Shown: positions 42,783 to 63,173, counted from the first letter of the stretch. The stretch is 64,000 nt of DNA from Sulfuricella sp. (GCF_035531155.1 NZ_DATKTK010000050.1:14294-78293), one strand, 5' to 3'. A program made the numbers and translations. Notes: generated from the letters alone by a model not told the origin.

Positions 42783-42850
42783 AACCGCAGAGGCGCGGAG
42801 GCGCAGAGGGTTTCAAGCGATTTCCTCTGCGTCTCCGCGTCTCCGCGGTG
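42783..42850. repeat. Periodic-arm palindrome, CGCAGAG subtype (copy 1)
   Basis: AACCGCAGAGGCGCGGAGGCGCAGAGG ... CCTCTGCGTCTCCGCGTCTCCGCGGTG. Confidence 0.85.
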
Positions 42851-42861
42851 AGGTTTTAAAT

Positions 42862-44262
42862 ATGAAATATCTCAGCACCCGCGGCGGCATGCCGCCCAAG
42901 ACTTTCACCGAAATCCTGCTCGGCGGCCTCGCTACCGATGGCGGATTGACCATCTCCGAAGCTTACCCCAAGTTCAGCAAGGAAGAGCTCGCCGCCATGC
43001 GCGGCATGAGCTACCGCGAGCTGGCATTCGAGGTGATCCGCCGCTTCGCCGACGACATTCCTGCCGCCGACCTCAGGGCCATCGTCGACAAGACCTACAC
43101 CGCCGCGATTTTCTGCAGCGACGAGATCACTCCGGTGAAGACGCTGGAACCGGGGCTGCACATCCTCGGCCTGTCCTACGGCCCGACCCTGGCTTTTAAA
43201 GATGTGGCGATGCAGTTGCTCGGCAACCTGTTCGAGTATGTGCTGGCCAAGGAAAACGCCGAGATCAACATCCTCGGCGCGACTTCGGGCGATACCGGCA
43301 GCGCGGCGGAATACGCCATGCGCGGAAAAAGAGGAATCAGAGTGTTCATGCTCTCGCCGCAGGGAAAGATGAGCCCGTTCCAGACCGCCCAGATGTTCTC
43401 CCTGCTGGACCCGAACATTTTTAACATCGCCGTGAAGGGCGCGTTCGATGACTGCCAGGACATCGTCAAGGCCGTCTCCAACGACCTGGAATTCAAGGCC
43501 AAACACAAGATCGGCGCAGTCAACTCGATCAACTGGGCGCGCGTCACGGCCCAGGTGGTGTACTACTTCAAGGCCTATTTCGCGGTGACTAAAAACAACG
43601 ACGAGGAAGTGTCTTTCTCCGTGCCATCGGGCAATTTCGGCAACGTCTGCGCCGGCCATATCGCCCGCCAGATGGGTTTGCCGATCCACAAGCTGATCGT
43701 CGCCACCAACGAGAACGACGTGCTCGACGAGTTCTTCCGCACCGGCGTTTATCGTCCCCGTCCGGAAACGCAGCATACCAGTAGCCCGTCGATGGATATC
43801 TCCAAGGCGTCCAACTTCGAGCGCTTTGTTTACGATCTGGTCGGACGCGATCCGGCAATCGTGAATGAGCTATGGAAGGAAGTGGACGCCGGCGGAAGTT
43901 TTGATCTTTCCAAAACGCCGTATTTCGCCAGGGTCAGGGAATTCGGCTTCGAATCCGGTTCCAGTAATCACGCCAACCGGCTGGAAACCATACGCCGCAT
44001 GCATCAGCGGTACGGCGTGATGATCGATACCCATACCGCCGACGGCGTAAAAGTGGGGCTGGAGCACCGCGAAGCGGGCATTCCTCTGGTCTGTCTGGAA
44101 ACCGCGCTGCCCGCCAAATTCGAGGAAACCATCCGCGAAGCGCTGGGCTGCGAGCCCGAGCGCCCGGCTGAGCTGGTGGGGATAGAGAAGCTGCCGCAGC
44201 GCTTTGAAGTCATGGAGGCTGATGCGGAAGCGGTCAAGCGCTGCATCGTGGCGCACTCCTGA
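42862..44262 (+). CDS. thrC: Threonine synthase
   Basis: GPTLAFKD, GATSGDTG, NSINWAR, VPSGNFGN. Confidence 0.97.
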   Translation: MKYLSTRGGMPPKTFTEILLGGLATDGGLTISEAYPKFSKEELAAMRGMSYRELAFEVIRRFADDIPAADLRAIVDKTYTAAIFCSDEITPVKTLEPGLHILGLSYGPTLAFKDVAMQLLGNLFEYVLAKENAEINILGATSGDTGSAAEYAMRGKRGIRVFMLSPQGKMSPFQTAQMFSLLDPNIFNIAVKGAFDDCQDIVKAVSNDLEFKAKHKIGAVNSINWARVTAQVVYYFKAYFAVTKNNDEEVSFSVPSGNFGNVCAGHIARQMGLPIHKLIVATNENDVLDEFFRTGVYRPRPETQHTSSPSMDISKASNFERFVYDLVGRDPAIVNELWKEVDAGGSFDLSKTPYFARVREFGFESGSSNHANRLETIRRMHQRYGVMIDTHTADGVKVGLEHREAGIPLVCLETALPAKFEETIREALGCEPERPAELVGIEKLPQRFEVMEADAEAVKRCIVAHS

Positions 44263-44309
44263 CTTATTCCAATTTGCATTCAATCCAACAATAAACAGCA
44301 AAAATCTTT

Positions 44310-44406
44310 CACCGCAAAGGACGCGAAGGACGCAAAGGAAAAGCAATCAGGCTGGCATGTCTGAGGGTTTGGTTTTTCCTTTGCAACCTTTGCGTCCTTT
44401 GCGGTT
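44310..44406. repeat. Periodic-arm palindrome, CGCAAAG subtype (copy 2)
   Basis: ACCGCAAAGGACGCGAAGGACGCAAAGG ... CCTTTGCAACCTTTGCGTCCTTTGCGGT. Confidence 0.85.
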
Positions 44407-44485
44407 AGTGTTTTTTTGATAGAGAAATGGAATTGCAAGCTGGTACCCGGTCAGGGTTCGAACAAATATTATGTTCGAGTCGGCC

Positions 44486-45361
44486 TTATTGGCCACGGCG
44501 CACGACGATGAACACAGAAAAGGTCACGATGGACATGCCGGCGATCTTCTCGATGCCGAGCTTTTCGTCAAACAGCCATGCGGCCTCAAGTGCGGTGACG
44601 GCGGGCACCAGATAAAACAGGCTGGAAACTTTGTGGATCTCGCCGTGCTTGATGAGATAGTTGAGCAGCAGGATGGCGCCGATTGACAGCACGATGGCCA
44701 GCCAGAAGATGGCGAAGATCAGCTGATGGGTGAACTGGATTTCACGGCTTTCGAACAGATAGGTGCCGAGCCCGAAAATCACCACGGTGGAAAGGTACTG
44801 GAAGAACGCGCTGCTGAGGATTTCATTGTGGGCGCAGAATTTCTTCTGGTAGAGCGTCCCCGCCGTGATGCCCAGCAGTGCGATTACGGCGGCCCATGCC
44901 GCGTGCTGGTTGAACGGTGCCGCATGGTTGCTGCCGGCGGCGAAAATCAGGGTTAGCCCGAACAGCCCGAGCACCACGCCCAACCACTGCATGCGAGTGA
45001 CTCGCTCACCCAGCAGCAGTGGAGCGGAGATCGTGGTCAGCAACGGCTGCAACCCGACAATCAACGCGCACAGGCCGGCGGGCATGCCGGCCTTGATCGC
45101 GGTGAACACGCCCCCCAGATAGGCACCGTGGATCAGGCTGCCGCTGACCATCAAATGGAAGCGCTGGCGCCAGTTTGCCGGGGGAGCGGGTTTGAAGTAC
45201 GCGATCAGCGCGACGAGCAGAGCCAGCGTCAGCACGAAGCGCAGGAACAGCAGCGTGTAGGGCTCCGCGTAGGGCAAGCCGTATTTTGCGCCGATGAAGC
45301 CGGTGCTCCATAGCAGGACGAACAGCAGCGGAATGTTGGCGAGAAAGACCCGCTTAAGCAA
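44486..45361 (-). CDS. DMT/EamA family transporter
   Basis: LWSTGFIGAK, VGLQPLLT; about 10 hydrophobic segments. Confidence 0.9.
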   Translation of the reverse strand: MLKRVFLANIPLLFVLLWSTGFIGAKYGLPYAEPYTLLFLRFVLTLALLVALIAYFKPAPPANWRQRFHLMVSGSLIHGAYLGGVFTAIKAGMPAGLCALIVGLQPLLTTISAPLLLGERVTRMQWLGVVLGLFGLTLIFAAGSNHAAPFNQHAAWAAVIALLGITAGTLYQKKFCAHNEILSSAFFQYLSTVVIFGLGTYLFESREIQFTHQLIFAIFWLAIVLSIGAILLLNYLIKHGEIHKVSSLFYLVPAVTALEAAWLFDEKLGIEKIAGMSIVTFSVFIVVRRGQ

Positions 45362-46994
45362 TCTTGCCCAGCTTTCGGTCTTCCCGGATCATGTCGCTGG
45401 CTTTCTCGGCGAACATGACCACCGGCGAACTGGTGTTGCCCGAGGTGATGGCCGGCATGATCGATGCATCCACCACCCGCAGGCCGGCGATACCATGCAC
45501 GCGCAACCGCGCGTCGACCACTGCCATGGGGTCGGCTTTGAGGTCATTGCCCATTTTGCAGGTACCGACCGGGTGGAAAATGGTCGTGCCGATGTCGCCG
45601 GCCGCTTTGGCCAATTCTTCATCGCTTTGGCAGGCGGGGCCAGGCTTGAACTCTTCCGGCGTGTAGCGTTGCAAGGCCGGGGCGGCGACAATGCGGCGCG
45701 TCAGGCGCAGCGAATCTGCCGCCACTTTGCGGTCGCCCTCGGTGGACAGGTAATTGGGCTGAATAAGCGGTGCTTCGCGGCTGTCGGCGCTCTTGATGCG
45801 GATATGGCCGCGGCTTTCCGGATGCAGATTGCACACCGAGGCAGTAAAGGCCGGGAAATCATGCAGCGGATCGCCGAACTTGTCGAGCGACAAGGGTTGC
45901 ACGTGGTATTCCAGATTCGGAGTGACCTGGCTTTCATCCGAGCGGACAAAAGCGCCAAGCTGGCTGGGGGACATGGAGAGCGGGCCGCTCCGGAAGAGCA
46001 GATATTGCAGCCCCATGCCGAGCCGCCCCAGCAGGCTTCCGGCAGTTTCATTCAGGGTGCGGGTGTTTTTCACCTTGAACGCCATGCGCAGTTGCAGGTG
46101 ATCCTGGAGGTTCTCGCCGACCCCGGGCAGTTCGTGAATTACCGGGATGCCGTGTTGTTGCAGCAATGGAGCCGGGCCGATACCGGAACATTGCAGAATC
46201 TGGGGCGAACTCACTGCTCCCGCAGCGAGCAGGGTTTCGAGAGTGGAATCAGCCTGGAAGGCTTGATTGTTCTGCCAGAACTCAACGCCAATGACACGCT
46301 TGCCTTCGAAGCGCAGGCGCCGCACGACCGCGTTGGTGATGACTTTGATGTTGGGGCGACTCAGGGCGGGGCGCAGGAAACCTTTTGAGGCATTCCAGCG
46401 CACGCCGCGTTTCTGATTGACTTCGAAATAGCCACACCCCTCATTATTGCCGCGATTGAAGTCGATGACCTTGGGAATGCCGACCTCGGCGGCTGCATCG
46501 CGAAAGGCGTCGAGGATTTCCCACGACAACCGCTGCTGTTCAACCCGCCATTCGCCGCCGGTGTTGTGCATCTCGTCCGCGCCGCGCGCGTAGTCTTCAG
46601 AGCGTTTGTAGTAGGGCAGGACCTCGTCCCATCCCCAGCCGGGATTGCCCTGCGCCTGCCATTTCTCGAAATCGCGTACCTGGCCGCGCATGTAGATCAT
46701 GCCGTTGATCGATGAGCTGCCGCCGAGTACCCGGCCGCGGGGGTAGCCAATGGCGCGCCCGTTCAAGCCGGGTTCGGGCTCGGTTTTGAAGCACCAGTCG
46801 GTACGAGGGTTGCCGACGCAATACAGATACCCGACCGGAATATGAATCCACAAGTAGTTATCCTTGCCGCCCGCTTCGAGTAACAGGACCTTGATGTCGG
46901 GGTCGCTGGACAGGCGGTTGGCCAGTACGCAGCCGGCTGTTCCGCCGCCGATGATGATGTAGTCGTAAGAGCCGATCGAGGTATTCATGTTCAT
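45354..46994 (-). CDS. GMC-family FAD oxidoreductase (choline dehydrogenase-like; HpdH/DddA-type candidate)
   Basis: GGGTAG, LLEAG, GGSSSINGM, NLQDH, FHPVGTCKMG, VVDAS; WIHIPVGY segment differs from BetA as I recall it. Confidence 0.85.
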   Translation of the reverse strand: MNMNTSIGSYDYIIIGGGTAGCVLANRLSSDPDIKVLLLEAGGKDNYLWIHIPVGYLYCVGNPRTDWCFKTEPEPGLNGRAIGYPRGRVLGGSSSINGMIYMRGQVRDFEKWQAQGNPGWGWDEVLPYYKRSEDYARGADEMHNTGGEWRVEQQRLSWEILDAFRDAAAEVGIPKVIDFNRGNNEGCGYFEVNQKRGVRWNASKGFLRPALSRPNIKVITNAVVRRLRFEGKRVIGVEFWQNNQAFQADSTLETLLAAGAVSSPQILQCSGIGPAPLLQQHGIPVIHELPGVGENLQDHLQLRMAFKVKNTRTLNETAGSLLGRLGMGLQYLLFRSGPLSMSPSQLGAFVRSDESQVTPNLEYHVQPLSLDKFGDPLHDFPAFTASVCNLHPESRGHIRIKSADSREAPLIQPNYLSTEGDRKVAADSLRLTRRIVAAPALQRYTPEEFKPGPACQSDEELAKAAGDIGTTIFHPVGTCKMGNDLKADPMAVVDARLRVHGIAGLRVVDASIMPAITSGNTSSPVVMFAEKASDMIREDRKLGKIA

Positions 46995-47029
46995 GATGGT
47001 GGGCGAAGCCTCCGGTTAATTACCAAACA

Positions 47030-48253
47030 CTAGGCTAACGCCTCATCCAGCAGTTCGATCCAATGGCGCACCGGCAGGTCGGTGCCGCTTTGCAGGTGGG
47101 CCTGGCAGCCGATGTTGGCGCTGGCGATCTGCGCCGGGCTCCCGCTTTGCAGCGCATCCAGCTTGTTGCGCAGCAACTGCTGCGACAATTCCTTCTGCAG
47201 TATCGAATAGGTTCCCGCCGAGCCGCAGCACAGGTGTTTGTCCGCTACCGGCGTAAGCTCGTAGCCGGCCCTGGTCAGCAATTCCTCAATCACGCCGACG
47301 ATTCTTTGCCCGTGCTGCAAGGTGCAGGGGGAATGGAATGCCACCTTGCCGCGCGGGGCTGGCGAGAGCAGGCAGAACAGCCCGTCCTTTTCCGCAGCGA
47401 GAATCTCGCTCAGGTCGCGGGTGAGGCCGGAAATCCGTGCCGCTTTCCCGGCATAGGCCGGATCGTCGCGCAGCAGGTGGCCGTATTCCTTGACCATCGC
47501 GCCGCAGCCGCTGGCGGTCATCACCACCGCCTCCGTGCCTTGTTCCAGGTAGGGCCACCAGGCGTCGATATTGCGGCGCATGTAGTCCAGCCCTTCCGCA
47601 TGGGCGTTCAGGTGATAGCTGACCGCGCCGCAGCAGCCGGCTTTCTCGGCGCTGAACAGCGTAATGCCGAGCCGATCCAGCACCCGCGCAGCGGCGGCAT
47701 TGGTGTTGGGCGCCAAGCCGGGCTGCACGCAGCCTTCCAGCACCAGCATGGTGCGAGCATGTCGCGCGGTTGGCCAGGGTTTCGCCGGCCGGGCGATGGG
47801 CACTTCCTTTGCCAGCGCGCCTGGCAGCAGCGGGCGAAACAGGCGGCCGAGGGTGAGCAGGGAATTGAAGATGGCCGGACGGGGCAGCACCGCGCGCAGC
47901 AGCCTGCGCTGCACGGCCTGCCACGGGCTGCGGCCGATCTTTTCCTCGGCGATGGCGCGACCGATGTCCACCAGGCGGCCGTAGCGCACGCCGGACGGGC
48001 AGGTGGTTTCGCAGGAGCGGCAGGTGAGGCAGCGATCCAGGTGGAGCAGGGTTTTTTCCGTCACCTCGGCGCCTTCGAGCATCTGCTTAATCAGGTAGAT
48101 GCGTCCGCGCGGGCTGTCCAGCTCGTTGCCGAGCAGCTGGTAGGTGGGGCAGGTGGCGGTGCAAAAACCGCAATGCACACAGGCGCGCAGGATGGCCTCC
48201 GCCTCTTGGCCGGCGGCGGTGTGCTTGATGGAATCGACGAGATTGGTTTGCAT
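47030..48253 (-). CDS. glcF: Glycolate oxidase iron-sulfur subunit
   Basis: CVHCGFCTATC, CLTCRSCETTC, CCGSAG. Confidence 0.95.
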   Translation of the reverse strand: MQTNLVDSIKHTAAGQEAEAILRACVHCGFCTATCPTYQLLGNELDSPRGRIYLIKQMLEGAEVTEKTLLHLDRCLTCRSCETTCPSGVRYGRLVDIGRAIAEEKIGRSPWQAVQRRLLRAVLPRPAIFNSLLTLGRLFRPLLPGALAKEVPIARPAKPWPTARHARTMLVLEGCVQPGLAPNTNAAAARVLDRLGITLFSAEKAGCCGAVSYHLNAHAEGLDYMRRNIDAWWPYLEQGTEAVVMTASGCGAMVKEYGHLLRDDPAYAGKAARISGLTRDLSEILAAEKDGLFCLLSPAPRGKVAFHSPCTLQHGQRIVGVIEELLTRAGYELTPVADKHLCCGSAGTYSILQKELSQQLLRNKLDALQSGSPAQIASANIGCQAHLQSGTDLPVRHWIELLDEALA

Positions 48254-48262
48254 GTCGCTTAA

Positions 48263-48486
48263 TCCTAAAAACGGCGATTAACCACGAATGACACGAATGT
48301 TCACGAATAACCAAGAGTAGGCGCCTCTAGGCGACACGAAATAGTTAGAGACAATCATCGTGTCGTCTAGAGGCGCCTATTTTTGGCACCAAACAGGTGA
48401 ATCAGACTATCCATTATAACTAACTGATTATTAGTGAACATTCGTGTTTCATTCGTGTAAATTCGTGGTTAAAAGCTTTTTCTAGG
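48263..48486. repeat. Periodic-arm palindrome, CACGAAT subtype (copy 3)
   Basis: TTAACCACGAATGACACGAAT ... ATTCGTGTAAATTCGTGGTTAA with CCTAAAAA/TTTTTCTAGG outer ends. Confidence 0.9.
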
Positions 48487-49542
48487 TTAAAACGCCTGGT
48501 GCATGCGGCCGGGGTTGAGGATGCCGTGCGGATCGAAGGTCTGCTTCAGCCGCTGGTGCAGTTCCAGCAGAGGTGCGGACAGGGGATGGAACGGCTCGGC
48601 GCTGGGCTCCGGGCTGCGGAACAGGGTCGCCTGGCCGCCGAGCGCAGCCGCCGCCTGGCGGATGGTCGTCGCATCGGCGTCGCTCGCCAGCCAGCGCAAT
48701 GCGCCGCCCCACTCGACCAGTTGCCGTCCCGGCACGGCGATAGCCGGTGCCGTGGATGGCAGCGACAGCCGCCACAGCGTTTCGGCATGGAAAAACGGGT
48801 GGCGCTGCTCGCGCACGCTGTGCCAGAAACTGTCGGCATCTTCCACTATTTCGCCGCCGAGTTTTTGCCGTACCGAGCGCACCGCGGCGGAGGCGCCGGA
48901 AAGGCGCACGGTCAGCGCGCCTTCGTGGTAGCAGGTGGCGGACAGCGACAGCGGCTGCGCCGCCCAGCGATTCATCGCCTCGAGCGCCTCCCGCTCTGCC
49001 ATGCCGAAGCGCAGGGTCAGCTCTTCGGCCGGCAGCGGCAGGATCTTCAGCGACACTTCCAGCAGCAGCCCCAGGGTGCCGAGCGATCCGGCCATCAGTC
49101 GCGACACGTCGTAGCCGGCGACATTCTTCATGACCTGGCCGCCAAAGCGCAGCACCTCGCCCTTGCCGTCGATCATGCGCACGCCCAGCACGTAGTCGCG
49201 CACCGCGCCTGCATAGGCGCGGCGCGGCCCGGACAGCCCGGCGGCGACGCAGCCGCCGAGGGTCGCACCTGGGCCGAAATGGGGCGGCTCGAACGGCAGC
49301 ATTTGCCGGTTGGCCGCCAGCGCCGCCTCGATCTCGGCCAGCGGCGTACCGGCGCGGGCGGTAAGCACGAGTTCGGTGGGTTCGTAGGAGACGATGCCGC
49401 GACAAACGGTCGCGTCCAGCGTTTCGCCATGCGTAGGGCGGCCGTAGAACGACTTGCTGCCCGAGCCGAGGATGCGCAACGGGCGGCGATCGTGGCCGGC
49501 TTCGCGCACGGTCTGGCTGAATTGTTCGATGGTGTCCTGCAT
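48487..49542 (-). CDS. glcE: Glycolate oxidase FAD subunit GlcE
   Basis: YEPTELV, FEPPHF, GGQVMKNVAGYD; ATG 49542 (the longer ORF start lies in a repeat). Confidence 0.95.
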   Translation of the reverse strand: MQDTIEQFSQTVREAGHDRRPLRILGSGSKSFYGRPTHGETLDATVCRGIVSYEPTELVLTARAGTPLAEIEAALAANRQMLPFEPPHFGPGATLGGCVAAGLSGPRRAYAGAVRDYVLGVRMIDGKGEVLRFGGQVMKNVAGYDVSRLMAGSLGTLGLLLEVSLKILPLPAEELTLRFGMAEREALEAMNRWAAQPLSLSATCYHEGALTVRLSGASAAVRSVRQKLGGEIVEDADSFWHSVREQRHPFFHAETLWRLSLPSTAPAIAVPGRQLVEWGGALRWLASDADATTIRQAAAALGGQATLFRSPEPSAEPFHPLSAPLLELHQRLKQTFDPHGILNPGRMHQAF

Positions 49543-49550
49543 CGCTTTAA

Positions 49551-49726
49551 CCTTAAAACCGTAATTAACCACGAATGACACGAATGTTCACGAATGAACA
49601 CAAATAGTTAACAACAAATATCGCCTCACCAAACAGGTGAATCGGGTGAATTTCATTAATCCTTTGATTATTCGTGAACATTAGTGTTTTATTCGTGTAA
49701 ATTCGTGGTTAATCGCTTTTTTTAGG
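49551..49726. repeat. Periodic-arm palindrome, CACGAAT subtype (copy 4)
   Basis: Same arms as copy 3 with a shorter interior. Confidence 0.9.
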
Positions 49727-49742
49727 TTTATCTATAATCTTC

Positions 49743-51197: not shown

Positions 51198-51235
51198 GGT
51201 CTCGGCGCCGAAATCGCGCTCCTTTCATTGCCAGC

Positions 51236-52540: not shown

Positions 52541-52554
52541 CGAAATTCCTTTTT

Positions 52555-52626
52555 CACCGCAGAGGCGCGGAGGCGCTGAGAAAAACTAAACCCAACCGAT
52601 TGTTCGATCTCTGCGCCTCTGCGGTT
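52555..52626. repeat. Periodic-arm palindrome, CGCAGAG subtype (copy 5)
   Basis: CACCGCAGAGGCGCGGAGGCGC ... CTCTGCGCCTCTGCGGTT. Confidence 0.85.
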
Positions 52627-52632
52627 AAGTCA

Positions 52633-54855
52633 TTAACCCAGCAAAGCCAGCGCCCGTTGCTCCATCGCCTTGGCGTTCATGCCGTTGAGGTCGAACAACT
52701 GGCCTACGCTGGCGGTGGTTTCGCCACGCCGCCAGCAGAATGTTTCGCGGCGTGCCGCGCGGGTTCTCAGCAGTACCGGCTCAAGCATGGCGGACGGACC
52801 GCCGGTGACGGCGATCAGCGCGTCGCCGTGGAACATGGCCTCAAAGTCACCGTCACTCATGAACAGGCCGTCCGGCTGGGACACGGTATTCCACGACACG
52901 TCGGTTGGGCGGTACAGGCGGCGCGGGTTGACCACGGCGACGATGCGCACGCCGATGCCCTGCTTGGTTAGCGCTTCGGCCGCCTCGAATACCGGCAGAA
53001 GCACCATGTCGCCCGTCACTGCGAATACCACCTTGGCCTTGCCGTCAGTGTCGAGCAGGGTGATCGCGCCTTCCTCCACTGCCTTGCGGCTCTGTGCCAG
53101 AGTGGTGCGTACCGGCAGTGGACTCTTGGAGGCGGTGATGACGATACCCTTGTTGTAGGTCTGCAGCGCCCATTCGTAGGCCACCTGGATCATGTTGGCG
53201 TCGGTCGGGAACAGCGGGAACACGTTGCCGTTGCGCATCATGGCGGCGAAGTAGGCTTCGACTTCCGGCCGCTGGTGGGTCCAGCCGTTGCGGCCCTGCT
53301 CCAGTGCGCCGGCGGTGAACAGGCACACCGTGCTCGGCGTTTTGCGACGCAGCTCGGCCATCGCCTGGATCACCGTCTGCCAGATCGGCAGGCCGTTGAT
53401 GACGAAAGATTCGTAAGAGCACCACAGGCTGCGCCCGCCGAATAGCGCCACTGCGGCAGCGAGCCCGGCGCAGGCATCCTCGTTGAGCGGCTCGTAAACC
53501 TGGCCGTTGGGGCCCTGGAAATACAGCTCATCCACCGTCGGATGGCGGATCGTGAGTGCCTTGTTGATGTTGGCCATGGCCGAGGCTTCGTTGCCATCGG
53601 CATTGGTGACGATGAAACGCGGGTCGCGCTTGCCGACCTCGGCCACCACTTGGCCGAAGGCGGTAGTCGGCACCTTGGCCTCGCCATCTACGTCGTATTC
53701 GGTCATCAGCGGCAGGCCGTCGAGGCTGGCCAACTCCAGCTCGAATTCGGTCACCACGGTCTTAACGGCGGGTCCGCCGCCGGCATGGCGGAAATTCTCG
53801 CGCACCAATTCCCAGGCGGCGGTCGACAGGGCGCGGCGTTGCAGGCCGCCCTTGACGTCGTCGCTTTCCAGGGTGTGGTAGGCGTACATGTTATGCGACT
53901 TGGCACCGGTGGCATGCACCCCGGTGCCCTTGAGTTGTTTCAGGATCAGCACCGACAGCCCGCCGTTGAGGCCGTTTTGCGCGGCTGCATGGCTGGCTTT
54001 TAGCACTGCGCCGGCAAAGGCCACGCGCCGCTGCCACGAGAACAGCGAGCTGTCGACGTAGGCGCCATCCTGATTCTGGTCGTCGAATTCCTTGGCGTCC
54101 ACCAGGTACACGTGCTTGAAACCGTGGGCCTTCCAGTAGGCCGTCATGCGGGCATTGTCCCAAGTCGAGACCATGCTGTGGTGTTCCTGGGAATAGCCGT
54201 TCCAGACCAGGATCGGTAGGAAGTTGGTGGCCTTGGGGTAGGCGGTGTTGAAATGCACCATGGCGCTCATGATGTAGGGCTCGCCCAGGCCGCCGTCGCC
54301 GATGGTCACCGGGAACAGCTTGCCGGGATGGAGCAGGGCGCCGGCCATGGCGAAATGCTGGCCCTGGCCCAAGGGGCCGGCGGGGGAGAGTAGGCCGGGA
54401 ATAGCGCCGGACAGATGTCCCAGCAGGCCGTGGGTTTCGCGGAAGCGCTCGCGCATCTGCTGCACCGTGGTTATGCCCATTTCTTCCAGCGAGGTGTCGA
54501 GGAACATGGCGCTGTAGAAGCCCGGCGCATGGTGGCCGACTTCGGTCACGATATTGGTGTGGCCCAGCATCACCATGGAGGCATAGGCTTCCGCGCTGCT
54601 GGCGAAACCGCCGGGGTGGCCGGAAGATTTGGCGCCGGTCACCTGGAGGGTGAGATAGCGCAGGGCATCCGCAACCAGCAGGGTCTGATAGGCCGCCTTT
54701 TCATCGTTGGCGTCGGCAACGCCGTGAACCTTTTCCGACAGGCAGGGGGCAGCGCCGTAACGATCGAAGTCCGGCATGGATTCCGCGAAATATTGAATTC
54801 CTTGGCAAAACGCCGGCGTAGCCTGCGGTGCTATCAGCTTTTTTTCCGCGCTCAT
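52633..54855 (-). CDS. Phosphoketolase-family ThDP-dependent enzyme (short 740-aa type)
   Basis: GDG...WNG ThDP motif, SGHPGG, EVGHH, SYESF, NGWTHQ. Confidence 0.82.
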   Translation of the reverse strand: MSAEKKLIAPQATPAFCQGIQYFAESMPDFDRYGAAPCLSEKVHGVADANDEKAAYQTLLVADALRYLTLQVTGAKSSGHPGGFASSAEAYASMVMLGHTNIVTEVGHHAPGFYSAMFLDTSLEEMGITTVQQMRERFRETHGLLGHLSGAIPGLLSPAGPLGQGQHFAMAGALLHPGKLFPVTIGDGGLGEPYIMSAMVHFNTAYPKATNFLPILVWNGYSQEHHSMVSTWDNARMTAYWKAHGFKHVYLVDAKEFDDQNQDGAYVDSSLFSWQRRVAFAGAVLKASHAAAQNGLNGGLSVLILKQLKGTGVHATGAKSHNMYAYHTLESDDVKGGLQRRALSTAAWELVRENFRHAGGGPAVKTVVTEFELELASLDGLPLMTEYDVDGEAKVPTTAFGQVVAEVGKRDPRFIVTNADGNEASAMANINKALTIRHPTVDELYFQGPNGQVYEPLNEDACAGLAAAVALFGGRSLWCSYESFVINGLPIWQTVIQAMAELRRKTPSTVCLFTAGALEQGRNGWTHQRPEVEAYFAAMMRNGNVFPLFPTDANMIQVAYEWALQTYNKGIVITASKSPLPVRTTLAQSRKAVEEGAITLLDTDGKAKVVFAVTGDMVLLPVFEAAEALTKQGIGVRIVAVVNPRRLYRPTDVSWNTVSQPDGLFMSDGDFEAMFHGDALIAVTGGPSAMLEPVLLRTRAARRETFCWRRGETTASVGQLFDLNGMNAKAMEQRALALLG

Positions 54856-54912
54856 CTTCTTCTCCAGTAATCAGAAAACTGTTAGGCATGGCAGAACTTG
54901 TCTACCATTTAA

Positions 54913-54948
54913 AATTTCACTATATGAAATTAACATTCATGTTATGAA
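54913..54948. promoter_or_regulatory. Tandem TTCA-N5-TGAA (T-N11-A) palindromes, LysR-type sites
   Basis: AATTTCA-CTATA-TGAAATT and TTCA-TGTTA-TGAA, offset by 20 bp, in the AT-rich gap upstream of the phosphoketolase gene. Confidence 0.55.
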
Positions 54949-55023
54949 AATAGTAGCAAAGCCCCCGGATAAATGCAACAGGCAAATCCTTGCTTCAGCA
55001 AGGAGATAGTTGCAGCGGGTAGC

Positions 55024-56616
55024 CTATTCCATGACGGCGTAACAGTGATTGGTAAGGAATTCCACGATAGCCTCGCTGGCGATCAGTTGATCGAAAACCT
55101 TCGCCCCTTGCTGATAATCCCCGGAAATGAAGCGTTTTTCGCTCACGCCCGCGATGATTCCGGCAACAGTTGCCGGAATCATCGCGCGGACCATCTCGAC
55201 TGTCACCTTGCGGCCGTCGTCCAGCACTCCGCGGGCGCTGTGTATCCACTGCCATACCTGGGAGCGGGAAATTTCGGCGGTGGCGGCGTCCTCCATCAGG
55301 TTGTGTATCGGCACGCAGCCAGTGCCAGCCAGCCAAGCGCCAAGGTAGGCTATCGCTACTTCGATGTTGGCGCGCAGCCCCGCCTCGGTGATCGGGCCTT
55401 CAGGTTCGAATTTCAGCAGGTCGGCGGCGCTAGCCTGGACGTCTTCGCGCTTCTTGTGCAACTGATTTGGGGTGGGCATCAGCCGGTCGAAAACCTCCAT
55501 CGCCAGCGGCACCAGGCCGGGATGGGCTACCCAAGTGCCGTCGTGGCCGTCGCTTGCTTCTCGCTCCTTGTCGGCGCGTACCTTGGCGAGTGCCATGGCA
55601 TTCGCCTCGGGGTCGGACTTGATCGGGATCTGTGCCGCCATTCCGCCCATGGCATGGGCGTTGCGGCGATGGCAGGTCTTGATCGATAGCAGCGAATAGG
55701 CGCGCATGAAGGGCGAGGTCATGGTCACCAGGCCGCGGTCGGCCAGGATGAAGCTCGGGTTGCGGCTGAACTTCTTGATGCAGCTGAAGATGTAATCCCA
55801 GCGTCCGCAGTTGAGGCCGGCCGAGTGCTCGCGCAGCTCGTAGAGGAATTCGTCCATCTCGAAGGCGGCGGGGAGGGTCTCGATCAGCGCCGTCGCCTTG
55901 ACGGTGCCGCGCGGGATGCCGAGGCGCTCCTGGGCGTAGACGAAGACGTCGTTCCACAACCGGGCTTCGAGGTGGCTTTCCATCTTGGGCAGGTAGAAAT
56001 AGGGCGCGGTGCCCCGGGACAGCAGGGTTTTTGCGTTGTGGAAGAAGTACAGGCCGAAGTCGAAGAGGCTGCCGGACACCGGCTTTCCGTCCACGGTCAC
56101 GTGCTTCTCCAGCATGTGCCAGCCGCGCGGGCGAACGAACAGCACCGCGGTTTTTTCATTCAACTGGTAGGTCTTGCCGTCCGGGTTGACGTGGCTGATG
56201 GTACGGGCGACCGCGTCGCGCAGGTTGATCTGGGCCTCGACCACGTTGGGCCAGGTCGGGGTCATGGAATCTTCCAGGTCCGCCATGTATACCTTTGCTC
56301 CGGCGTTGAGTCCGTTGATCAGCATCTTGCGCTCCGCCGGGCCGGTGATCTCGACGCGCCGGTCCTGCAGTTCGGCAGGCACCGGGGCGACGCTCCAGTC
56401 GCCGCTGCGCACGTCGGCGGTTTCGGGCAGGAAGTCTGGCAGCTTGCCGCTGTCCAGTTCGGCCTGGCGGGCCACCCGCCGCTCCAGCAGGGATAGACGC
56501 ACGGGCTCGAACTTGCGCGCCAGTTCGGCGATGAACGTCAGTGCCTCGGGAGTGAGGATGCTGGATTGCTCCGGGGTGACCGGGGCGGAGATTGCTATGC
56601 CTGCGGGATGAGTCAT
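55024..56616 (-). CDS. aceB: Malate synthase A
   Basis: RRVEITGP, VRPRGWH, LNCGRWDYIFS, DGHDGTWVAHP, LMEDAATAEISR. Confidence 0.96.
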   Translation of the reverse strand: MTHPAGIAISAPVTPEQSSILTPEALTFIAELARKFEPVRLSLLERRVARQAELDSGKLPDFLPETADVRSGDWSVAPVPAELQDRRVEITGPAERKMLINGLNAGAKVYMADLEDSMTPTWPNVVEAQINLRDAVARTISHVNPDGKTYQLNEKTAVLFVRPRGWHMLEKHVTVDGKPVSGSLFDFGLYFFHNAKTLLSRGTAPYFYLPKMESHLEARLWNDVFVYAQERLGIPRGTVKATALIETLPAAFEMDEFLYELREHSAGLNCGRWDYIFSCIKKFSRNPSFILADRGLVTMTSPFMRAYSLLSIKTCHRRNAHAMGGMAAQIPIKSDPEANAMALAKVRADKEREASDGHDGTWVAHPGLVPLAMEVFDRLMPTPNQLHKKREDVQASAADLLKFEPEGPITEAGLRANIEVAIAYLGAWLAGTGCVPIHNLMEDAATAEISRSQVWQWIHSARGVLDDGRKVTVEMVRAMIPATVAGIIAGVSEKRFISGDYQQGAKVFDQLIASEAIVEFLTNHCYAVME

Positions 56617-56639
56617 GGTCGTTTCCTTTCAAATGGGTG

Positions 56640-57587
56640 TCAGGCGACGCGGTTCTGCGCTTCGCCGCGCATGAACGCCTCGATGTTGTCGATCAACTGG
56701 TCGGCCAGGGTCTGCATCGCTTCCCGGCCCGACCAGGCGATGTGCGGCGTGAGGATGAAGTTGGGCAGGTCGAGGTCGAGCAGGGGGTTGCCTTCTCTGG
56801 GCGGCTCCTTGCCCAGCACGTCGAATCCGGCGCCGCCGATTCTGCCCGAATGCAGGACATCGAGCAGCGCCGCTTCGTCCACCAGACCGCCGCGGGCGGT
56901 GTTGATCAGCAGGGCGTGGGGTTTCATCCGGGCGAATTCAGCCGCACCGATCAGGTGGCGGGTTTGCTCGCTGAGGGGCAAGTGCAAACTGATCACGTCG
57001 CTTTCCTGCAGCACCGTGTCGAACGCGGTGTAGCCCGGGCGCACCTCGGCGGCACCCTTGTGCTCGGCGATCAGCACCTTCATGCCGAATGCCAGCGCGA
57101 TCTGTTCCACCGCCTGGCCGATGGCGCCGTGGCCGATCAGCCCCAGGGTGCTGCCGTGCAGGTCGCGCACCGGATGGGTGAACAGGCAGAACTGGTCGGC
57201 CCGCTGCCATTCGCCGTTGCGCAAGTCGGCGCGGAACGCCAGCAGGTTGCGGCGCAGCGCCAGCATCAGCATGAACACGTGCTCCGGCACGGTGTGCACC
57301 GAGTAGTTGCGGATGTTGGATACCACGATGCCGCGTTCGCGGCAGCAGGCGATATCCACGTTGTCGGTGCCGGTGGCGGCGGCGGCCACCATCTTCAGCT
57401 TGGGCAATTGCTCCAGCGTTTCCCGGCGTAGCGGCACCTTGTTGGTGATGGCGACAGTGGCCTCCATCAGCCGCGCCACGATCTGGTCGGCCGGCGTGGC
57501 AGGATACTCCTCCCACTGGTGATGGAAGGACGGGTGGCGGATGTCGGCGATGATGCTGTCGGAATCGAGAAAGACGATTTTTTCCAT
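56640..57587 (-). CDS. D-2-hydroxyacid dehydrogenase (glycerate dehydrogenase/hydroxypyruvate reductase-like)
   Basis: ATGTDNVD, GHGAIG, INTARGGLVDE, LTPHIAW. Confidence 0.85.
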   Translation of the reverse strand: MEKIVFLDSDSIIADIRHPSFHHQWEEYPATPADQIVARLMEATVAITNKVPLRRETLEQLPKLKMVAAAATGTDNVDIACCRERGIVVSNIRNYSVHTVPEHVFMLMLALRRNLLAFRADLRNGEWQRADQFCLFTHPVRDLHGSTLGLIGHGAIGQAVEQIALAFGMKVLIAEHKGAAEVRPGYTAFDTVLQESDVISLHLPLSEQTRHLIGAAEFARMKPHALLINTARGGLVDEAALLDVLHSGRIGGAGFDVLGKEPPREGNPLLDLDLPNFILTPHIAWSGREAMQTLADQLIDNIEAFMRGEAQNRVA

Positions 57588-57619
57588 GAGATTTGTCCTG
57601 GCTTTGATATTTCATAAAC

Positions 57620-57746
57620 TCACCGCGGAGGCGCGGAGGCGCAGAGAACGTAGTACCCAGAATTACGACAGGCTTAGCAAATAATAGCCCGAAGAAATTA
57701 GGGGTTTATTGTGCTTTTCCTCTGCGTCTCGGCGCCTCTGCGGTGA
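57620..57746. repeat. Periodic-arm palindrome, CGCAGAG subtype (copy 6)
   Basis: TCACCGCGGAGGCGCGGAGGCGCAGAG ... CTCTGCGTCTCGGCGCCTCTGCGGTGA. Confidence 0.85.
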
Positions 57747-57756
57747 AAAGTCCAAG

Positions 57757-58644
57757 CTAATCGCCGCCCATGCCGGACATCCGTTCCAGCACCTTGACCA
57801 CTGCAGAGGAATCCAGGTCAGCGTCGCCGCTGCCCATCAGGGCGTTGAGGTGCTGGGTGACCAGGGCGGCGGCAGGCAGCACCAGGCCGAGCTGGTGGGC
57901 GGTTTCCATGACGATGCGCATGTCTTTCTGGTGCAGGCCAACCTTGAAGCCGGGCCTGAAATCGTGGTCCAGCATGCGCTTGCCGTGCACTTCCAGTATC
58001 TTGCTGCCGGCGAAACCGCCGAGCAGGGCCTCGCGCACCTTGGCCGGGTCGGCACCGTTCTTGCGGGCGAAAGTCAGCGCTTCCGCCACCGCTTCAATAG
58101 TCACCGCCACCACGATCTGGTTGCATGCCTTGGCCACTTGGCCGGCGCCGTTGCCGCCGACGTGGACGATATTCTCGCCCATGCATTCGAACAGCGGTCT
58201 GACGCGCTCGAACACCTCCGGCTTGCCGCCCGCCATGATCGAGAGGGTGGCATTGATCGCCCCGGTTTCGCCGCCGGAAACCGGCGCGTCCAGCATCTCG
58301 ATGCCTTTCGCACTAAGTCGCTCGGCGAAAGCCTTGGTGGCGGTGGGGGAGATAGTGCTCATGTCGACCACTACCAAACCTGGCCGGGCGCTGTGAATGA
58401 TGCCCTGTTCGCCGAACACCACCGTTTCCACATCCGGGGTGTCGGATACGATGGTGAAGATCACGTCCGCGTGGGCTGCTACTTCCCCGGGCGTGGCGCA
58501 GGCGGTTGCACCTGCAGCCGTCAGCTGCTGCAGGGCTTCCGGGCGGCGCGCGTAGGCCCACAGCTTGTGCCCGCCCTTCATCAGGTTGAGGGCCATGGGG
58601 CGGCCCATGATGCCGGGGCCGATAAATCCGACATTGAATGACAT
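57757..58644 (-). CDS. glxR: HIBADH-family reductase, 2-hydroxy-3-oxopropionate (tartronate semialdehyde) reductase-like
   Basis: GPGIMG, DAPVSGG, KACNQ, FRPGF...HQKD. Confidence 0.75.
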   Translation of the reverse strand: MSFNVGFIGPGIMGRPMALNLMKGGHKLWAYARRPEALQQLTAAGATACATPGEVAAHADVIFTIVSDTPDVETVVFGEQGIIHSARPGLVVVDMSTISPTATKAFAERLSAKGIEMLDAPVSGGETGAINATLSIMAGGKPEVFERVRPLFECMGENIVHVGGNGAGQVAKACNQIVVAVTIEAVAEALTFARKNGADPAKVREALLGGFAGSKILEVHGKRMLDHDFRPGFKVGLHQKDMRIVMETAHQLGLVLPAAALVTQHLNALMGSGDADLDSSAVVKVLERMSGMGGD

Positions 58645-58674
58645 AAGTTTCTCTTAAGGGTTACGTATCGTTAA

Positions 58675-58874
58675 TCCTTAAAACGGCGATTAACCACGAA
58701 TGACACGAATTTTCACGAATAAACACGAATAGTTAGAGACAAACATCGTGTCGCCCAGAGGCGTCTACTTTTGGCGCCAAACGGGTGAATCAGCTAAGCT
58801 ATGATAATCTACTGATTATTCGTGAATATTCGTGCTTCATTCGTGTAAATTCGTGGTTAAAAGCTTTTTCTAGG
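58675..58874. repeat. Periodic-arm palindrome, CACGAAT subtype (copy 7)
   Basis: Arms and interior near-identical to copies 3 and 9. Confidence 0.9.
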
Positions 58875-59828
58875 TTAATGCATCAGCCACACCGTTACCG
58901 GCAGCGTCAGCCAGAACAGTACCGTGGTCCAGCCGATCAGCAGGGCGGCGGCCTCGGTGTCGAGATGAAAGCGGTCGGTCAGGATCAGCGCCGACATGAT
59001 GGTCGGCATGCCCGCTTCGACGATGGCGGCTTTCTGCGCCTCGCCCACCGGAGCGAACAGCAGCGACGCGGTGAGCGCCACCACCAGCGGCATCAGGGCG
59101 AGCTTGATGGCGGCCACGCCGAGAATGACTCCCTTGGGTTTCAGTTGCCGCCAGGGGATGGACAGCCCCAGCACAAACATCATGACCGGGATGGTGGCCT
59201 GGCCGATCATCTTGGCCGCATGGACCAGCGGCTCGAAAGCCAGTCCGCTCATCTGCAAGCCGGCTCCCGCAAAAAACGCCCAGATCGGCGGGATGCCGAC
59301 CAGTTGGCGCCATACCGGCGGATGCAGGCCGGCGGATTCAGGCGGGCCGAGGTGGGTGCAGACCCATATGCCCAGGCTCCAGAACAGCGGCATGGTCATC
59401 AGCATGTCGTTGAAGGCCGCATAGCGAGGTGCTTCGCTGCCATAGAGGAAGACCAGCACCGGCACGCCGATGTAGAAGGTGTTGCCGAACATGCCGCCCA
59501 CCAGCAAGGCGGCGCGCGTCCCGTTGTGCAGGTCGCGCCCGAACCGGGTGCGGTAGAGCAGCAGGTAGAGCACCGCGCCGGAGGTCAGGCCGCCGATACC
59601 GACCAGAAGGGGCACCGACAGCAGTCCGGGGGTGATCGGCGTGGCAACCGCAATGGAGAACAGAATGGCCGGGAAGAACAGGTTGAGCACCAGCCGGTTG
59701 AGCTGGATGCGCAAGGTCTTGCTGGAGATTTCCCGGTAATGGTTCGGCCAGACTGCGCCCACGCCGACCAGAATGGCGGCCGGCAGCATCACCTCGATCA
59801 TGAGTTTGACCAGATGGTTCAGGTCCAT
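58875..59828 (-). CDS. AEC (auxin efflux carrier) family transporter
   Basis: FFPAILF, FGNTFYIGVP, KLALMP, EAGMP. Confidence 0.85.
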   Translation of the reverse strand: MDLNHLVKLMIEVMLPAAILVGVGAVWPNHYREISSKTLRIQLNRLVLNLFFPAILFSIAVATPITPGLLSVPLLVGIGGLTSGAVLYLLLYRTRFGRDLHNGTRAALLVGGMFGNTFYIGVPVLVFLYGSEAPRYAAFNDMLMTMPLFWSLGIWVCTHLGPPESAGLHPPVWRQLVGIPPIWAFFAGAGLQMSGLAFEPLVHAAKMIGQATIPVMMFVLGLSIPWRQLKPKGVILGVAAIKLALMPLVVALTASLLFAPVGEAQKAAIVEAGMPTIMSALILTDRFHLDTEAAALLIGWTTVLFWLTLPVTVWLMH

Positions 59829-59832
59829 AATT

Positions 59833-60001
59833 ATCCTAAAAACCGCAGTTCATTAACCGCAAAGACGCGAAGGCGCAAAGAAAACAAGGACATAAGATCC
59901 ATCTGGTATTCACCTGTCCGGTGACTGGGCAGATTCCGATAACACATTGTTTTTCCTTTGCGTTCTTTGCGCCTTTGCGGTTCAAATGCTTTTTTTAGGA
60001 T
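59833..60001. repeat. Periodic-arm palindrome, CGCAAAG subtype (copy 8)
   Basis: ATCCTAAAAA...AACCGCAAAGACGCGAAGGCGCAAAG ... CTTTGCGTTCTTTGCGCCTTTGCGGTT...TTTTTTAGGAT. Confidence 0.88.
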
Positions 60002-60035
60002 TATTCCCTGAGCGAGGCGGCTGCCGTGATGACGT

Positions 60036-61538
60036 TTAGCCGAGCGTCGGCATCACCAGCGTGGAGGCGCTGCGCTCAGACACTTCCGGCCAGCGGCTGG
60101 TGATGGCCTTGGTGCGGGTGTAGAAGTACACGCCTTCCATGCCGTGCATGTGCAGGTCGCCGAACAGCGAGGACTTCCAGCCGCCGAAGGAGAAGAAGGC
60201 CATCGGTACCGGGATCGGCACGTTGATGCCGACCATGCCGACTTCGATCTCGTTCTGGAAGCGCCGCGCCGCCGCGCCGGAACTGGTGAAGATGGCGGTG
60301 CCGTTGGCGTAGGGGTTGCTGTTGACCAGGTTGATCGCCTCGTCGAAGCTGGCGGCGCGCAGCACGATCAGCACCGGGCCGAAGATTTCCTCGCGGTAGA
60401 TGGTCATCTCGGTGGAAACATGGTCGAACAGGGTCGGCCCGACGAAAAAGCCGTTCTCGTGGCCGGGCACCTTGATGCCGCGCCCATCCGTTAACAACTT
60501 TGCGCCCTGCGCCACGCCGCTGTCGATGTGGCCGACGATCTTGTCGCGATGCTGGGCTGAGATCACCGGGCCCATCTCGACGCCTTTCCTGTCGCCCGGG
60601 CCGACCACCAGCTTCTCGGCTCTTTCCTTCAGCTTGGCCACCAGCGCATCGGCCACGTCGCCCACCGCGACCACGGTGGAGATCGCCATGCAGCGCTCGC
60701 CGGCGGAGCCGTAGGCGGCGCCCATGATGGCGTCGGCGGTGAAGTCCAGCTCGGCGTCGGGCAGTACGATGGCATGGTTCTTGGCGCCGCCCAGGGCCTG
60801 CACGCGCTTGCCGTGGCGGGCGGCGGTCTCGTAGATGTGTTTGGCCACCGGCGTCGAACCGACGAAGGACACGGCACGCACGTCGGGGTGGATGAGCAGG
60901 GTGTCCACCGCTTCCTTGTCGCCCGGCACGACGTTGAAAACGCCGTCGGGCAGGCCCGCTTCCTTGAACAGCTCGGCCATACGCAGGCTGCACGAAGGCA
61001 CCTTTTCGGAAGGCTTGAGGACGAAGGTGTTGCCGCAGGCGATGGCGATGGGGAACATCCACATCGGCACCATCGCCGGGAAGTTGAACGGGGTGATGCC
61101 GGCGCATACCCCCACCGGCTGCAGCATGGAGTGGCAATCGACGCCGCGGCCGACGTTTTCGGCATGCTCGCCTTTGAGCAGATGCGGCGCGCCGACGGCG
61201 AATTCCACCACTTCGATGCCGCGCTGCACCGAGCCGGCGGCGTCTTCCAGGGTCTTGCCATGCTCTTCGCTGGCCAGTTGCGCCAGCTCGGCGCGGTGGG
61301 TTTCGAGCAGGTCACGGAACTTGTTCAGGATGCGGCTGCGGCGCAGGGGGGTGGTATCGCGCCAGGCTGGGAATGCAGCCTTGGCGGCGGCAACTGCGCT
61401 TTCCACATCCTCGCGGCTGGCCAGCGGCACCTGACGGATCGCTTCGCCGGTGGCCGGGTTGGTCACGTCTGCCAGGCGGTTGCTGCGGCTCTCGGTGCGC
61501 TGGCCGTTGATCCATAGGGTTAAGGTAGGCTTCGACAT
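60036..61538 (-). CDS. mmsA: CoA-acylating (methyl)malonate-semialdehyde dehydrogenase
   Basis: ITPFNFPAM, SFVGSTP, GGAKNH, GERCMA, EEIFGP, FGGWK.SLFGDLH. Confidence 0.93.
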   Translation of the reverse strand: MSKPTLTLWINGQRTESRSNRLADVTNPATGEAIRQVPLASREDVESAVAAAKAAFPAWRDTTPLRRSRILNKFRDLLETHRAELAQLASEEHGKTLEDAAGSVQRGIEVVEFAVGAPHLLKGEHAENVGRGVDCHSMLQPVGVCAGITPFNFPAMVPMWMFPIAIACGNTFVLKPSEKVPSCSLRMAELFKEAGLPDGVFNVVPGDKEAVDTLLIHPDVRAVSFVGSTPVAKHIYETAARHGKRVQALGGAKNHAIVLPDAELDFTADAIMGAAYGSAGERCMAISTVVAVGDVADALVAKLKERAEKLVVGPGDRKGVEMGPVISAQHRDKIVGHIDSGVAQGAKLLTDGRGIKVPGHENGFFVGPTLFDHVSTEMTIYREEIFGPVLIVLRAASFDEAINLVNSNPYANGTAIFTSSGAAARRFQNEIEVGMVGINVPIPVPMAFFSFGGWKSSLFGDLHMHGMEGVYFYTRTKAITSRWPEVSERSASTLVMPTLG

Positions 61539-61566
61539 CTTTCTCTCCATAAGTCTTGAATTATTT

Positions 61567-61764
61567 TAAAAACGACGATTAACCACGAATGACACGAATA
61601 TTCACGAATAAACACAAATAGTTAGAGACAATCATCGTGTCGCCTGGAGGCGCCTACTTTTGGCACCAAACGGGTGAATCAGGCTATTCATGCTAACTAA
61701 CAGATTATTCGTGAACATTCGTGTTTAATTCGTGTAAATTCGTGGTTAAAAGCTTTTTCCAGGA
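61567..61764. repeat. Periodic-arm palindrome, CACGAAT subtype (copy 9)
   Basis: Arms and interior near-identical to copies 3 and 7. Confidence 0.9.
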
Positions 61765-63075: not shown

Positions 63076-63173
63076 GGATGAATTTCCACCTGGGCGCATT
63101 AGCTGCTATGCGCAGATTCAGTCAGCGGCCCGGAAATGTCCGGGCCGCGTTCAGCCGGCAGGGAAGAGGCTGG

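Follow-up and report, generated by a model that had tools for sequence, protein, structure and literature searches.

The DNA analysed here, referred to as the window, is a stretch of 64,000 nucleotides from Sulfuricella sp. (G000:C50:14294-78293, where G000 is the host genome, a 3.46-Mb assembly of 71 contigs). Between positions 42,783 and 61,764 the window carries nine intergenic loci built from rows of heptamer units. These loci are gene-less members of a hairpin family that is mobile and apparently undescribed. The flanking genes are hom, thrC, an EamA exporter gene, glcF, glcE, glcD and the genes of a DUF1537-type kinase, tartronate-semialdehyde reductase, an AEC transporter and methylmalonate-semialdehyde dehydrogenase. 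Two of the copies are therefore located inside glcDEF.

The loci were located by an inverted-repeat scan and by direct reading of the window. Structures are present at all nine coordinates listed in a first-pass annotation of the same DNA, and the three unit types that it named (CACGAAT, CGCRGAG and CGCRAAG) are correct. Its description of all nine as long palindromes applies to eight, which are long and imperfect; the structure at 57620 is a lone arm. The loci are as follows.

42784..42849, no strand assigned: short CGCRGAG-type palindrome of 3+3 units with 8-nt period, in the hom-thrC spacer
44300..44416, no strand assigned: CGCRAAG-type palindrome with 9-nt period, between thrC and the convergent EamA-type exporter gene
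48263..48487, + strand: long CACGAAT-type element between glcF and glcE; TAA duplicated at 48260-48262 and 48488-48490
49550..49727, + strand: long CACGAAT-type element between glcE and glcD; TTA duplicated at 49547-49549 and 49728-49730
52553..52628, no strand assigned: CGCRGAG-type palindrome of 3+2 units, right end decayed
57618..57646, + strand: lone left arm of three CGCRGAG units, without right arm
58675..58875, + strand: long element of the CACGAAT type, flanked by the genes for tartronate-semialdehyde reductase and the AEC transporter; TAA duplicated at 58672-58674 and 58876-58878
59834..60000, + strand: long CGCRAAG-type element with 8-nt period; TTA duplicated at 59831-59833 and 60001-60003
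61564..61764, + strand: long CACGAAT-type element, left end degenerate; TTA duplicated at 61561-61563 and 61765-61767

The four CACGAAT copies can be aligned end to end. As had been noted before, three of them have a common interior; the fourth is set apart by the lack of a 23-nt module. The element at 48263..48487 holds two GTAG modules of 23-25 nt, which are oppositely oriented. The CGCRAAG-type element at 59834 shares its outer ends, CCTAAAAA/TTTTTAGG, with the CACGAAT copies, as the first-pass annotation had stated. At the only junctions that were read, the copies at 48263, 49550 and 59834 have their ...AGG(W) end where a Shine-Dalgarno site of the downstream gene would be expected. The end of the 49550..49727 element, AAGGT, is placed 8 nt ahead of the glcE ATG, and that of the 59834 element, TAGGA, occupies the Shine-Dalgarno position ahead of the ATG at 59828.

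The three short copies that were folded (42783, 44300 and 52553) give predicted RNA hairpins with energies between -36 and -66 kcal/mol and z-scores between -4.5 and -9 (-55.8 kcal/mol and z -7.6 for the palindrome at 42784..42849). The lone arm at 57618 shows no such signal (z -0.3 and +0.5). The first 42 kb of the window contain no real array, in agreement with the first-pass annotation, but only two chance matches of two units each (21281 and 33883). A perfect 18-nt inverted repeat with a one-base gap (CGCGATGATTCCGGCAAC G GTTGCCGGAATCATCGCG) is present within a coding region at 55150-55186.

A genome-wide family and its turnover

For the search of whole genomes, units were defined by the pattern C[AG]C[AG][AG]A[GT] and an arm by at least three units, with the reversed-sequence genome as control. 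Approximately 305 arms were found in G000 and 5 in the control. The arms resolve into ~167 left/right pairs and 30 lone arms, which supplies the genome-wide count that had been called for. The units conform to CRCRRAK, and at least six subtypes can be told apart, the three of the window plus CACRGAT, CACAGAG and CGCAGAT. Both arms belong to the same subtype in 164 of the 167 paired copies. An arm consists of 3-4 heptamers at a spacing of 8-10 nt with TTNACC in front. The copies are clustered along G000 (over-dispersed in 20-kb bins) and modestly enriched in the spacers of co-directional genes, which hold 124 of 159 copies (78%) and make up 68.5% of all spacers.

Two forms can be distinguished. 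Short forms are arrays bounded by TTNACC...GGTNAA. Long forms, which measure 167-225 nt in the window, have the ends WCCT(A)AAAA ... TTTT(T)AGGW, followed inwards by a short linker, TTNAC|C and the units. In this genus the outer inverted ends of a complete long form comprise roughly 20 nt (WCCTAAAAA...TTTTTAGGW). The flanking trinucleotides are identical in 23 of 33 long copies, and the left flank is TNA in 31 of the 33 (TTA 9, TCA 8, TAA 8, TGA 6). Long forms duplicate a TNA target on insertion into short AT-rich spacers, often near the downstream start codon, and are biased in their orientation relative to the flanking genes (11:2, 8:2 and 7:0). The outer ends are hardly ever found without heptamer arrays: 29 of 35 end pairs have arrays, and the remainder corresponds to the background level. 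An independent miniature inverted-repeat transposable element (MITE) that captures hairpins with its outer ends was therefore considered and rejected.

A 25-nt GTAG-tagged module, CCAAAAGTAGGCGCCTCTAGGCGAC, is present in 27 copies in G000, including window positions 48311-48339 and 48358-48386. About 19 of the 27 lie within CACGAAT, CACRGAT or CACAGAG arms, directly before a unit, including the left arm of a gene-bearing CACGAAT copy on contig C26 (see below). The module looks like a second-order parasite that targets heptamer arrays. Furthermore, G000 contains a second hairpin superfamily with strict 7-nt units (AATGGGT, ATGGGTG, AGTGATG, AGTCCTG and others) at ~24 loci. At one of these, C69:39529-39837 (- strand), arrays of GGCGAGT enclose the single PF05635 (S23p / 23S_rRNA_IVP) gene of the genome.

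Turnover of the copies was followed in G015, a sister genome of the same genus with genes 93-95% identical to those of G000. Its syntenic 24 kb were aligned to the window, and two additional 20-kb regions were compared between genomes for insertion events. Three of the nine window copies have orthologues in G015 and six sites differ. The element at 48263 is found at the same site with 87% identity, with one of its GTAG modules missing. The orthologue of the 52553 copy retains the third right unit and the TTTTTTAAGGA end, both of which are deleted in G000, and the 57618 arm is a lone arm in G015 as well (91% identity). Two sites, 49550..49727 (cgcTTTAtcta) and 59834..60000, are clean and empty in G015. 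At three further sites the copy is missing and the spacer is a different one: other sequence fills the spacer at 42784..42849 according to direct alignment, the spacer at 44300..44416 is 35 nt of different sequence as compared with 217 nt in G000, and 28 nt of different spacer are present at 58675. At the remaining site, 61564, direct alignment shows that G015 holds a long element of the CACRGAT type at exactly the same TTA.

Conversely, at least two copies in this region of G015 are absent from G000. One of them is a CGCAGAGGA-type long element inserted at a TTA that serves as stop codon to the gene with its end at window 51236. In a further genome, G005, no CACGAAT arrays are present at all, and the spacing fits the absence of both glc-operon copies; the copies in G000 are therefore gains. 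The two additional regions yielded further insertion events. Among them, in G006, where CACGAAT copies are 95-96% identical and a recent burst is assumed, a CACGAAT long form is inserted at TAA within the loop of a CACRGAT short form. The spacer beside the orthologue of the gene at 61765-63099 is occupied by a CACGAAT element in G014 and by one of the CGCAAAG type in G003, and it is unoccupied in G005 and G017. The clean empty sites with a duplicated TNA and the high turnover against G015 bear out the suggestion that these are non-autonomous mobile elements, and the empty alleles looked for in a sister genome are found at 49550 and 59834.

Repeats of other kinds also differ between these genomes. 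Opposite window positions 40160 and 47036, G015 has GTAG doublets (GTAGGAGCGACCTCCAGGTCGCGAA...) that are missing in G000 and resemble REPINs, the hairpins built from repetitive extragenic palindromes (REPs). Opposite 41430 it has a different G/C-rich palindromic repeat. G000:C5:111517-111687 is a palindromic MITE of 170 nt with CTAGCCCGGATGTTTCATAAATT ends, where the G006 spacer has a CACRGAT long form instead.

The first-pass annotation had suggested that most arm mismatches of the short subtypes are compatible with G-T pairing on the + strand, whichever strand is transcribed. Mismatches in the three folded window hairpins favour the transcribed strand, but this pattern does not generalise: the genome-wide count is 308 G:T against 365 A:C and does not depend on gene direction. 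The covariation analysis that had been proposed gave no signal either, as A/G variants within subtypes are mirrored in 72.5% of cases (control 72.1%). Without an excess of G:T and without mirrored variants, the heptamers give the impression of words that are recognised, not of pairing partners selected at the RNA level. Intrinsic terminators are found at the frequency of chance (17 versus 17.5 expected), in a scan whose loop limit is exceeded by the long stems. Comparison with Rfam returned only generic hairpin matches (plant miRNA) far below the gathering threshold.

GxxExxY nuclease genes inside cognate arms

The first-pass annotation had tentatively connected similar arms with GxxExxY genes. 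G000 contains four such genes (TIGR04256), all of which are located inside arms, each of a different and matching subtype.

C52:12587: TIGR04256 gene in CGCAAAG arms, ribF/ileS junction (read by eye from the flanks)
C5:147514: TIGR04256 gene in CGCAGAG arms, trpD/trpC junction (read by eye from the flanks)
C43:83070: TIGR04256 gene in CGCAGAT arms
C26:28455: TIGR04256 gene in CACGAAT arms, ABC ATPase/permease junction

The four genes are single-copy and encode proteins of 116-130 aa with 34-52% identity and intact GxxExxY and D...ExK motifs. The catalytic D, E and K are conserved across 67 GxxExxY sequences. An AlphaFold model based on these 67 sequences (pLDDT, the predicted local distance difference test, 89.4) has a PD-(D/E)XK fold with a core like that of Cas4 and lambda exonuclease. 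The best Foldseek matches are weak and comprise Cas4 SSO0001 (E 1.5e-3), lambda exonuclease, tRNA-splicing endonuclease and Hjc. A sequence search of solved structures in the PDB returned no GxxExxY homologue.

Gene cassettes and gene-less copies have only their arms in common, and nothing of the gene region recurs in the interiors of the latter. An origin of the gene-less copies as deletion derivatives of the gene was therefore rejected. The search for arms that enclose an open reading frame (ORF) yielded, besides the four cassettes, only an IS1595-like insertion. It lies at G000:C40:64118-65291, nested in a CGCAGAT-type long form with TGA duplication, and has perfect inverted ends of its own (GATTAGCCCCCAACCTCAGCC). 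As a nested insertion sequence (IS) with its own ends, it was rejected as a parent of the family.

Within the genus the cassettes occupy fixed operon junctions and retain remnants of the outer linker, CAGTTCATTCAC. In four genomes the ATPase/permease junction is occupied by the CACGAAT cassette, in two by a CACRGAT cassette. G015, G007, G010 and G005 have no cassette there and show the ancestral ATGA overlap of stop and start codon. At the trpD/trpC junction of G006, a CGCAAAG cassette is found with a CGCAGAG unit left over behind it. Genes with cognate arms of 9-nt period, the period of the window copy at 44300, are found only in G006, G007 and G017 among the genus genomes. Some arms are translated. 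The CGCAGAG-type ORF at G000:C5:147472-147912 begins with MNRRGAETQRE and ends with ...SAPPRLCGEI within the arms. The CACGAAT cassette at G000:C26:28284-28805 brings its own ATG from CACGAATG, and the ORF of the upstream ABC ATPase extends into the left arm.

More than 593 GxxExxY homologues are distributed over many phyla, including one in Methanothrix. Among the best 80 of these loci, which were checked for inverted CRCRRAG arrays, 57 have such arrays around the gene, as compared with 9 of 80 mismatched flanks.

Arrays and gene also occur together. In an order-wide sample of 121 genomes, all with a completeness of 90% or more, array-rich genomes, i.e. those with at least 10 arrays, make up 17 of the 18 that have the gene and 10 of the 103 that lack it (Fisher 6e-13, kinship of the genomes being ignored). 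With the own genus left out and kinship likewise ignored, the association holds (p 2e-11). Within the genus sample of 18 genomes, array hits range from 21 to 392 per genome (0-7 in controls). The three complete genomes without the gene are at or near the bottom of this range with 21, 41 and 81 hits. CACGAAT counts are highest (217, 127, 111 and 77) in the four genomes that have the CACGAAT-type gene, and the next count, 75, belongs to a genome without it. Furthermore, lineage gains match the genes: G000, with the A, B, C and F genes, gained copies of the A and C types, and G015, with the B gene only, gained copies of the B type.

Candidate mobilisers

We assign a probability of roughly 60% to the reading in which the nine loci belong to a family that is mobilised by the nuclease in a manner similar to REPINs and RAYTs, the tyrosine transposases associated with REPs, and that inserts like MITEs. 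By analogy with this pair, each GxxExxY nuclease would recognise its cognate heptamer array and act in trans on gene-less copies. A staggered cut at TNA by the nuclease would explain the 3-bp duplication. Transcripts across the stems of 25-40 bp are likely RNase III substrates, as are the intervening sequences of 23S rRNA, and such processing would explain why copies are tolerated inside operons such as glcDEF.

Several observations weigh against mobilisation by the nuclease. A 3-bp TNA duplication together with inverted ends is the hallmark of the DDE transposases of the IS5/PIF-Harbinger type and is not known from a lone PD-(D/E)XK enzyme. The link between the nuclease and mobilisation is one of correlation. 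Related genomes are not independent, so that the p-values overstate the order-wide association. Target duplications were looked for in the short forms and none is detectable; in the cassettes of other phyla neither the outer ends nor a target duplication can be detected. Ten genomes of the order have at least 10 arrays but no GxxExxY gene. Counts of CACRGAT arrays do not depend on the CACRGAT gene (51, 54 and 46 without it in G000, G006 and G015; 50 and 51 with it in G003 and G014). The PF05635 gene, which is unrelated to GxxExxY, also lies within a heptamer hairpin, and genes in the loop could therefore be cargo. Finally, the draft of 71 contigs could lack the mobiliser because it was left unassembled.

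Some of these observations are accounted for if the long forms are ordinary MITEs of an IS5/PIF-Harbinger-type DDE transposase that is lost, unassembled or external, and if the GxxExxY genes only share the hairpin or take advantage of it, either as cargo or as a parasite in its own right. The TNA duplication and terminal inverted repeats are in line with such an origin, as are the CACRGAT copies without a cognate gene, the array-rich genomes without any GxxExxY gene and the cassettes of other phyla that lack these ends. In the G000 draft, however, to which the search was confined, no parent IS with matching ends was found, and none of the elements with such ends has a transposase gene between them. 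The genome lacks PF13359, and its one multi-copy PF01609 (DDE_Tnp_1) element, present in four diverged copies, has the unrelated ends CAGTAGTGTCCGGTTAA. Moreover, the outer ends are nearly always accompanied by arrays, the genus cassettes keep their linker remnants and the association of arrays with the gene is strong. We thus consider a DDE origin unlikely. Copies of the IS4/IS5 type with CAGTAGTGTCCGGTTAA ends adjoin CACGAAT elements (G000:C54:1-1000 and C40:91852-93718), and three of the four copies are at contig ends.

GxxExxY might instead be a homing-type endonuclease, with the gene-less hairpins as landing pads or scars of loss and with replacement by recombination through shared arms and ends. 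Exchange of subtypes at one site agrees with homing: CACGAAT and CACRGAT cassettes share the ATPase/permease junction in related genomes, CGCAGAG and CGCAAAG cassettes share the trpD/trpC junction, with a unit left over, and long forms of the CACGAAT and CACRGAT types share the TTA at 61564. A PD-(D/E)XK homing endonuclease domain is also among the low-rank fold matches. But one gene copy per subtype faces tens of gene-less copies whose interiors share nothing with the gene region, and clean insertions are seen at TNA sites that were empty before, which makes homing improbable.

That the palindromes are host regulatory or structural elements (bidirectional terminators, RNase III sites or protein-binding arrays) and not selfish is the least probable explanation, because strong predicted hairpins, A-run/T-run ends that resemble bidirectional terminators, the orientation bias, the enrichment between co-directional genes and the AGG supplied before start codons at the junctions read are outweighed by the difference of six of nine window sites between closely related genomes, copy numbers that vary from 21 to 392 within one genus, the lack of compensatory covariation and of a wobble bias toward the transcribed strand, and a terminator signal not above chance.

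Mobilisation by the nuclease may be part of a broader picture, which we put forward as tentative and rather doubtful. GxxExxY proteins might be widespread, undescribed domesticated mobilising nucleases that read arrays of 7-base words, words that would diversify in step with the protein (CACGAAT, CACGGAT, CGCAGAG, CGCAAAG and CGCAGAT in one genus). The TNA-inserting hairpins would replace each other at the same sites and be neutralised at the RNA level. Such a system would be the PD-(D/E)XK counterpart of REPIN-RAYT, and the same vehicle might lie behind the intervening sequences of 23S rRNA. Keyword searches of the literature returned no description of heptamer-array hairpins with a nuclease and only incidental mention of GxxExxY.

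Should the nuclease prove to be the mobiliser, bacteria and archaea would have a new enzymatic route by which non-autonomous repeats proliferate. Such a role would also provide a function for the large family PF13366, which is listed as 'unknown' and in which bacterial and archaeal clades are mixed (PMC3424549), and would bear on how rRNA intervening sequences arose, a question of long standing (PMC4990558). The pairs of protein and heptamer subtype could expose a simple code of DNA recognition. In practical terms, the elements break assemblies, seed spurious ORFs (for example MNRRGAETQRE) and lengthen neighbouring ones, and those within operons such as glcDEF probably impose RNA processing.

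Comparison with known systems

The family is most readily compared with REP/REPIN-RAYT systems. Both have short palindromic copies in intergenic positions, in numbers from tens to hundreds per genome, a single-copy, vertically inherited enzyme gene per subtype that is flanked by cognate repeats, several pairs of subtype and gene in one genome, and a copy number that tracks the presence of the gene. The enzyme, on the other hand, has a PD-(D/E)XK fold and not the HUH/Y1 fold of RAYTs. The repeat-flanked genes of G000 are GxxExxY genes, and its three weak PF01797 (Y1_Tnp) matches lie elsewhere. The arms are rows of heptamers that start with TTNACC instead of a single palindrome of 20-40 bp, and they carry no GTAG/CGTC end tag, although a separate GTAG module is nested in some copies. 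REPINs are not known to have the terminal inverted repeats and the 3-bp TNA duplication of the long forms. Scattered as inverted pairs across the 71 contigs and found in every gene context, the copies correspond neither to CRISPR arrays, with evenly spaced direct repeats and unique spacers, nor to integron attC sites, in which an R''-L''...L'-R' structure with a GTTRRRY core comes after each cassette in one orientation. In excluding REPs and CRISPR the first-pass annotation was right.

The generic features of MITEs (short, non-coding, with inverted ends and target duplication) are found in the long forms. These resemble the Tourist-like MITEs of IS5/PIF-Harbinger elements in being AT-rich and 167-225 nt long, in their terminal inverted repeats and TNA duplication, and in their insertion next to genes. 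They differ in that no parent IS was found in the own draft genome, six subtypes of subterminal heptamers co-exist, and the sole coding relatives carry a small nuclease in place of a DDE transposase.

Correia elements (CREE/NEMIS) of Neisseria are reportedly co-transcribed with neighbouring genes, their RNA stems being cut by RNase III (De Gregorio et al.). Like the present copies, they are intergenic, hairpin-forming and MITE-like, with roughly 100-150 bp and no known transposase; PMC4853749 mentions their structure. Unlike these copies, they duplicate TA, have unrelated ends of 26 bp and are not known to contain heptamer arrays or to be associated with a nuclease gene. Heptamer arrays also occur as the STRR of cyanobacteria and the TAACTGA arrays of Beggiatoaceae (MacGregor 2015, cited by PMC4853749). 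There, too, tandem heptamer words in direct and inverted orientation fill intergenic spacers; the words are others, and no report of defined ends, a target duplication or an enclosed nuclease gene is known for them.

The intervening sequences of 23S rRNA that contain the S23p ORF (Coxiella, Leptospira) have a stem of roughly 28 bp and occur sporadically; mobility by an unknown mechanism has been suggested, and papers on them leave the origin as well as the function of S23p elements open (PMC4990558). The insertion is tolerated because the stem is cut by RNase III. In both cases a small ORF lies in the loop of an inverted-repeat stem, and the PF05635 gene of G000 sits in GGCGAGT arms. Their site of insertion is helix 25 or 45 of the 23S rRNA gene. 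The nine copies of the window, in contrast, are all located between protein-coding genes, are gene-less and consist of CRCRRAK units, and their coding relatives carry GxxExxY instead of S23p.

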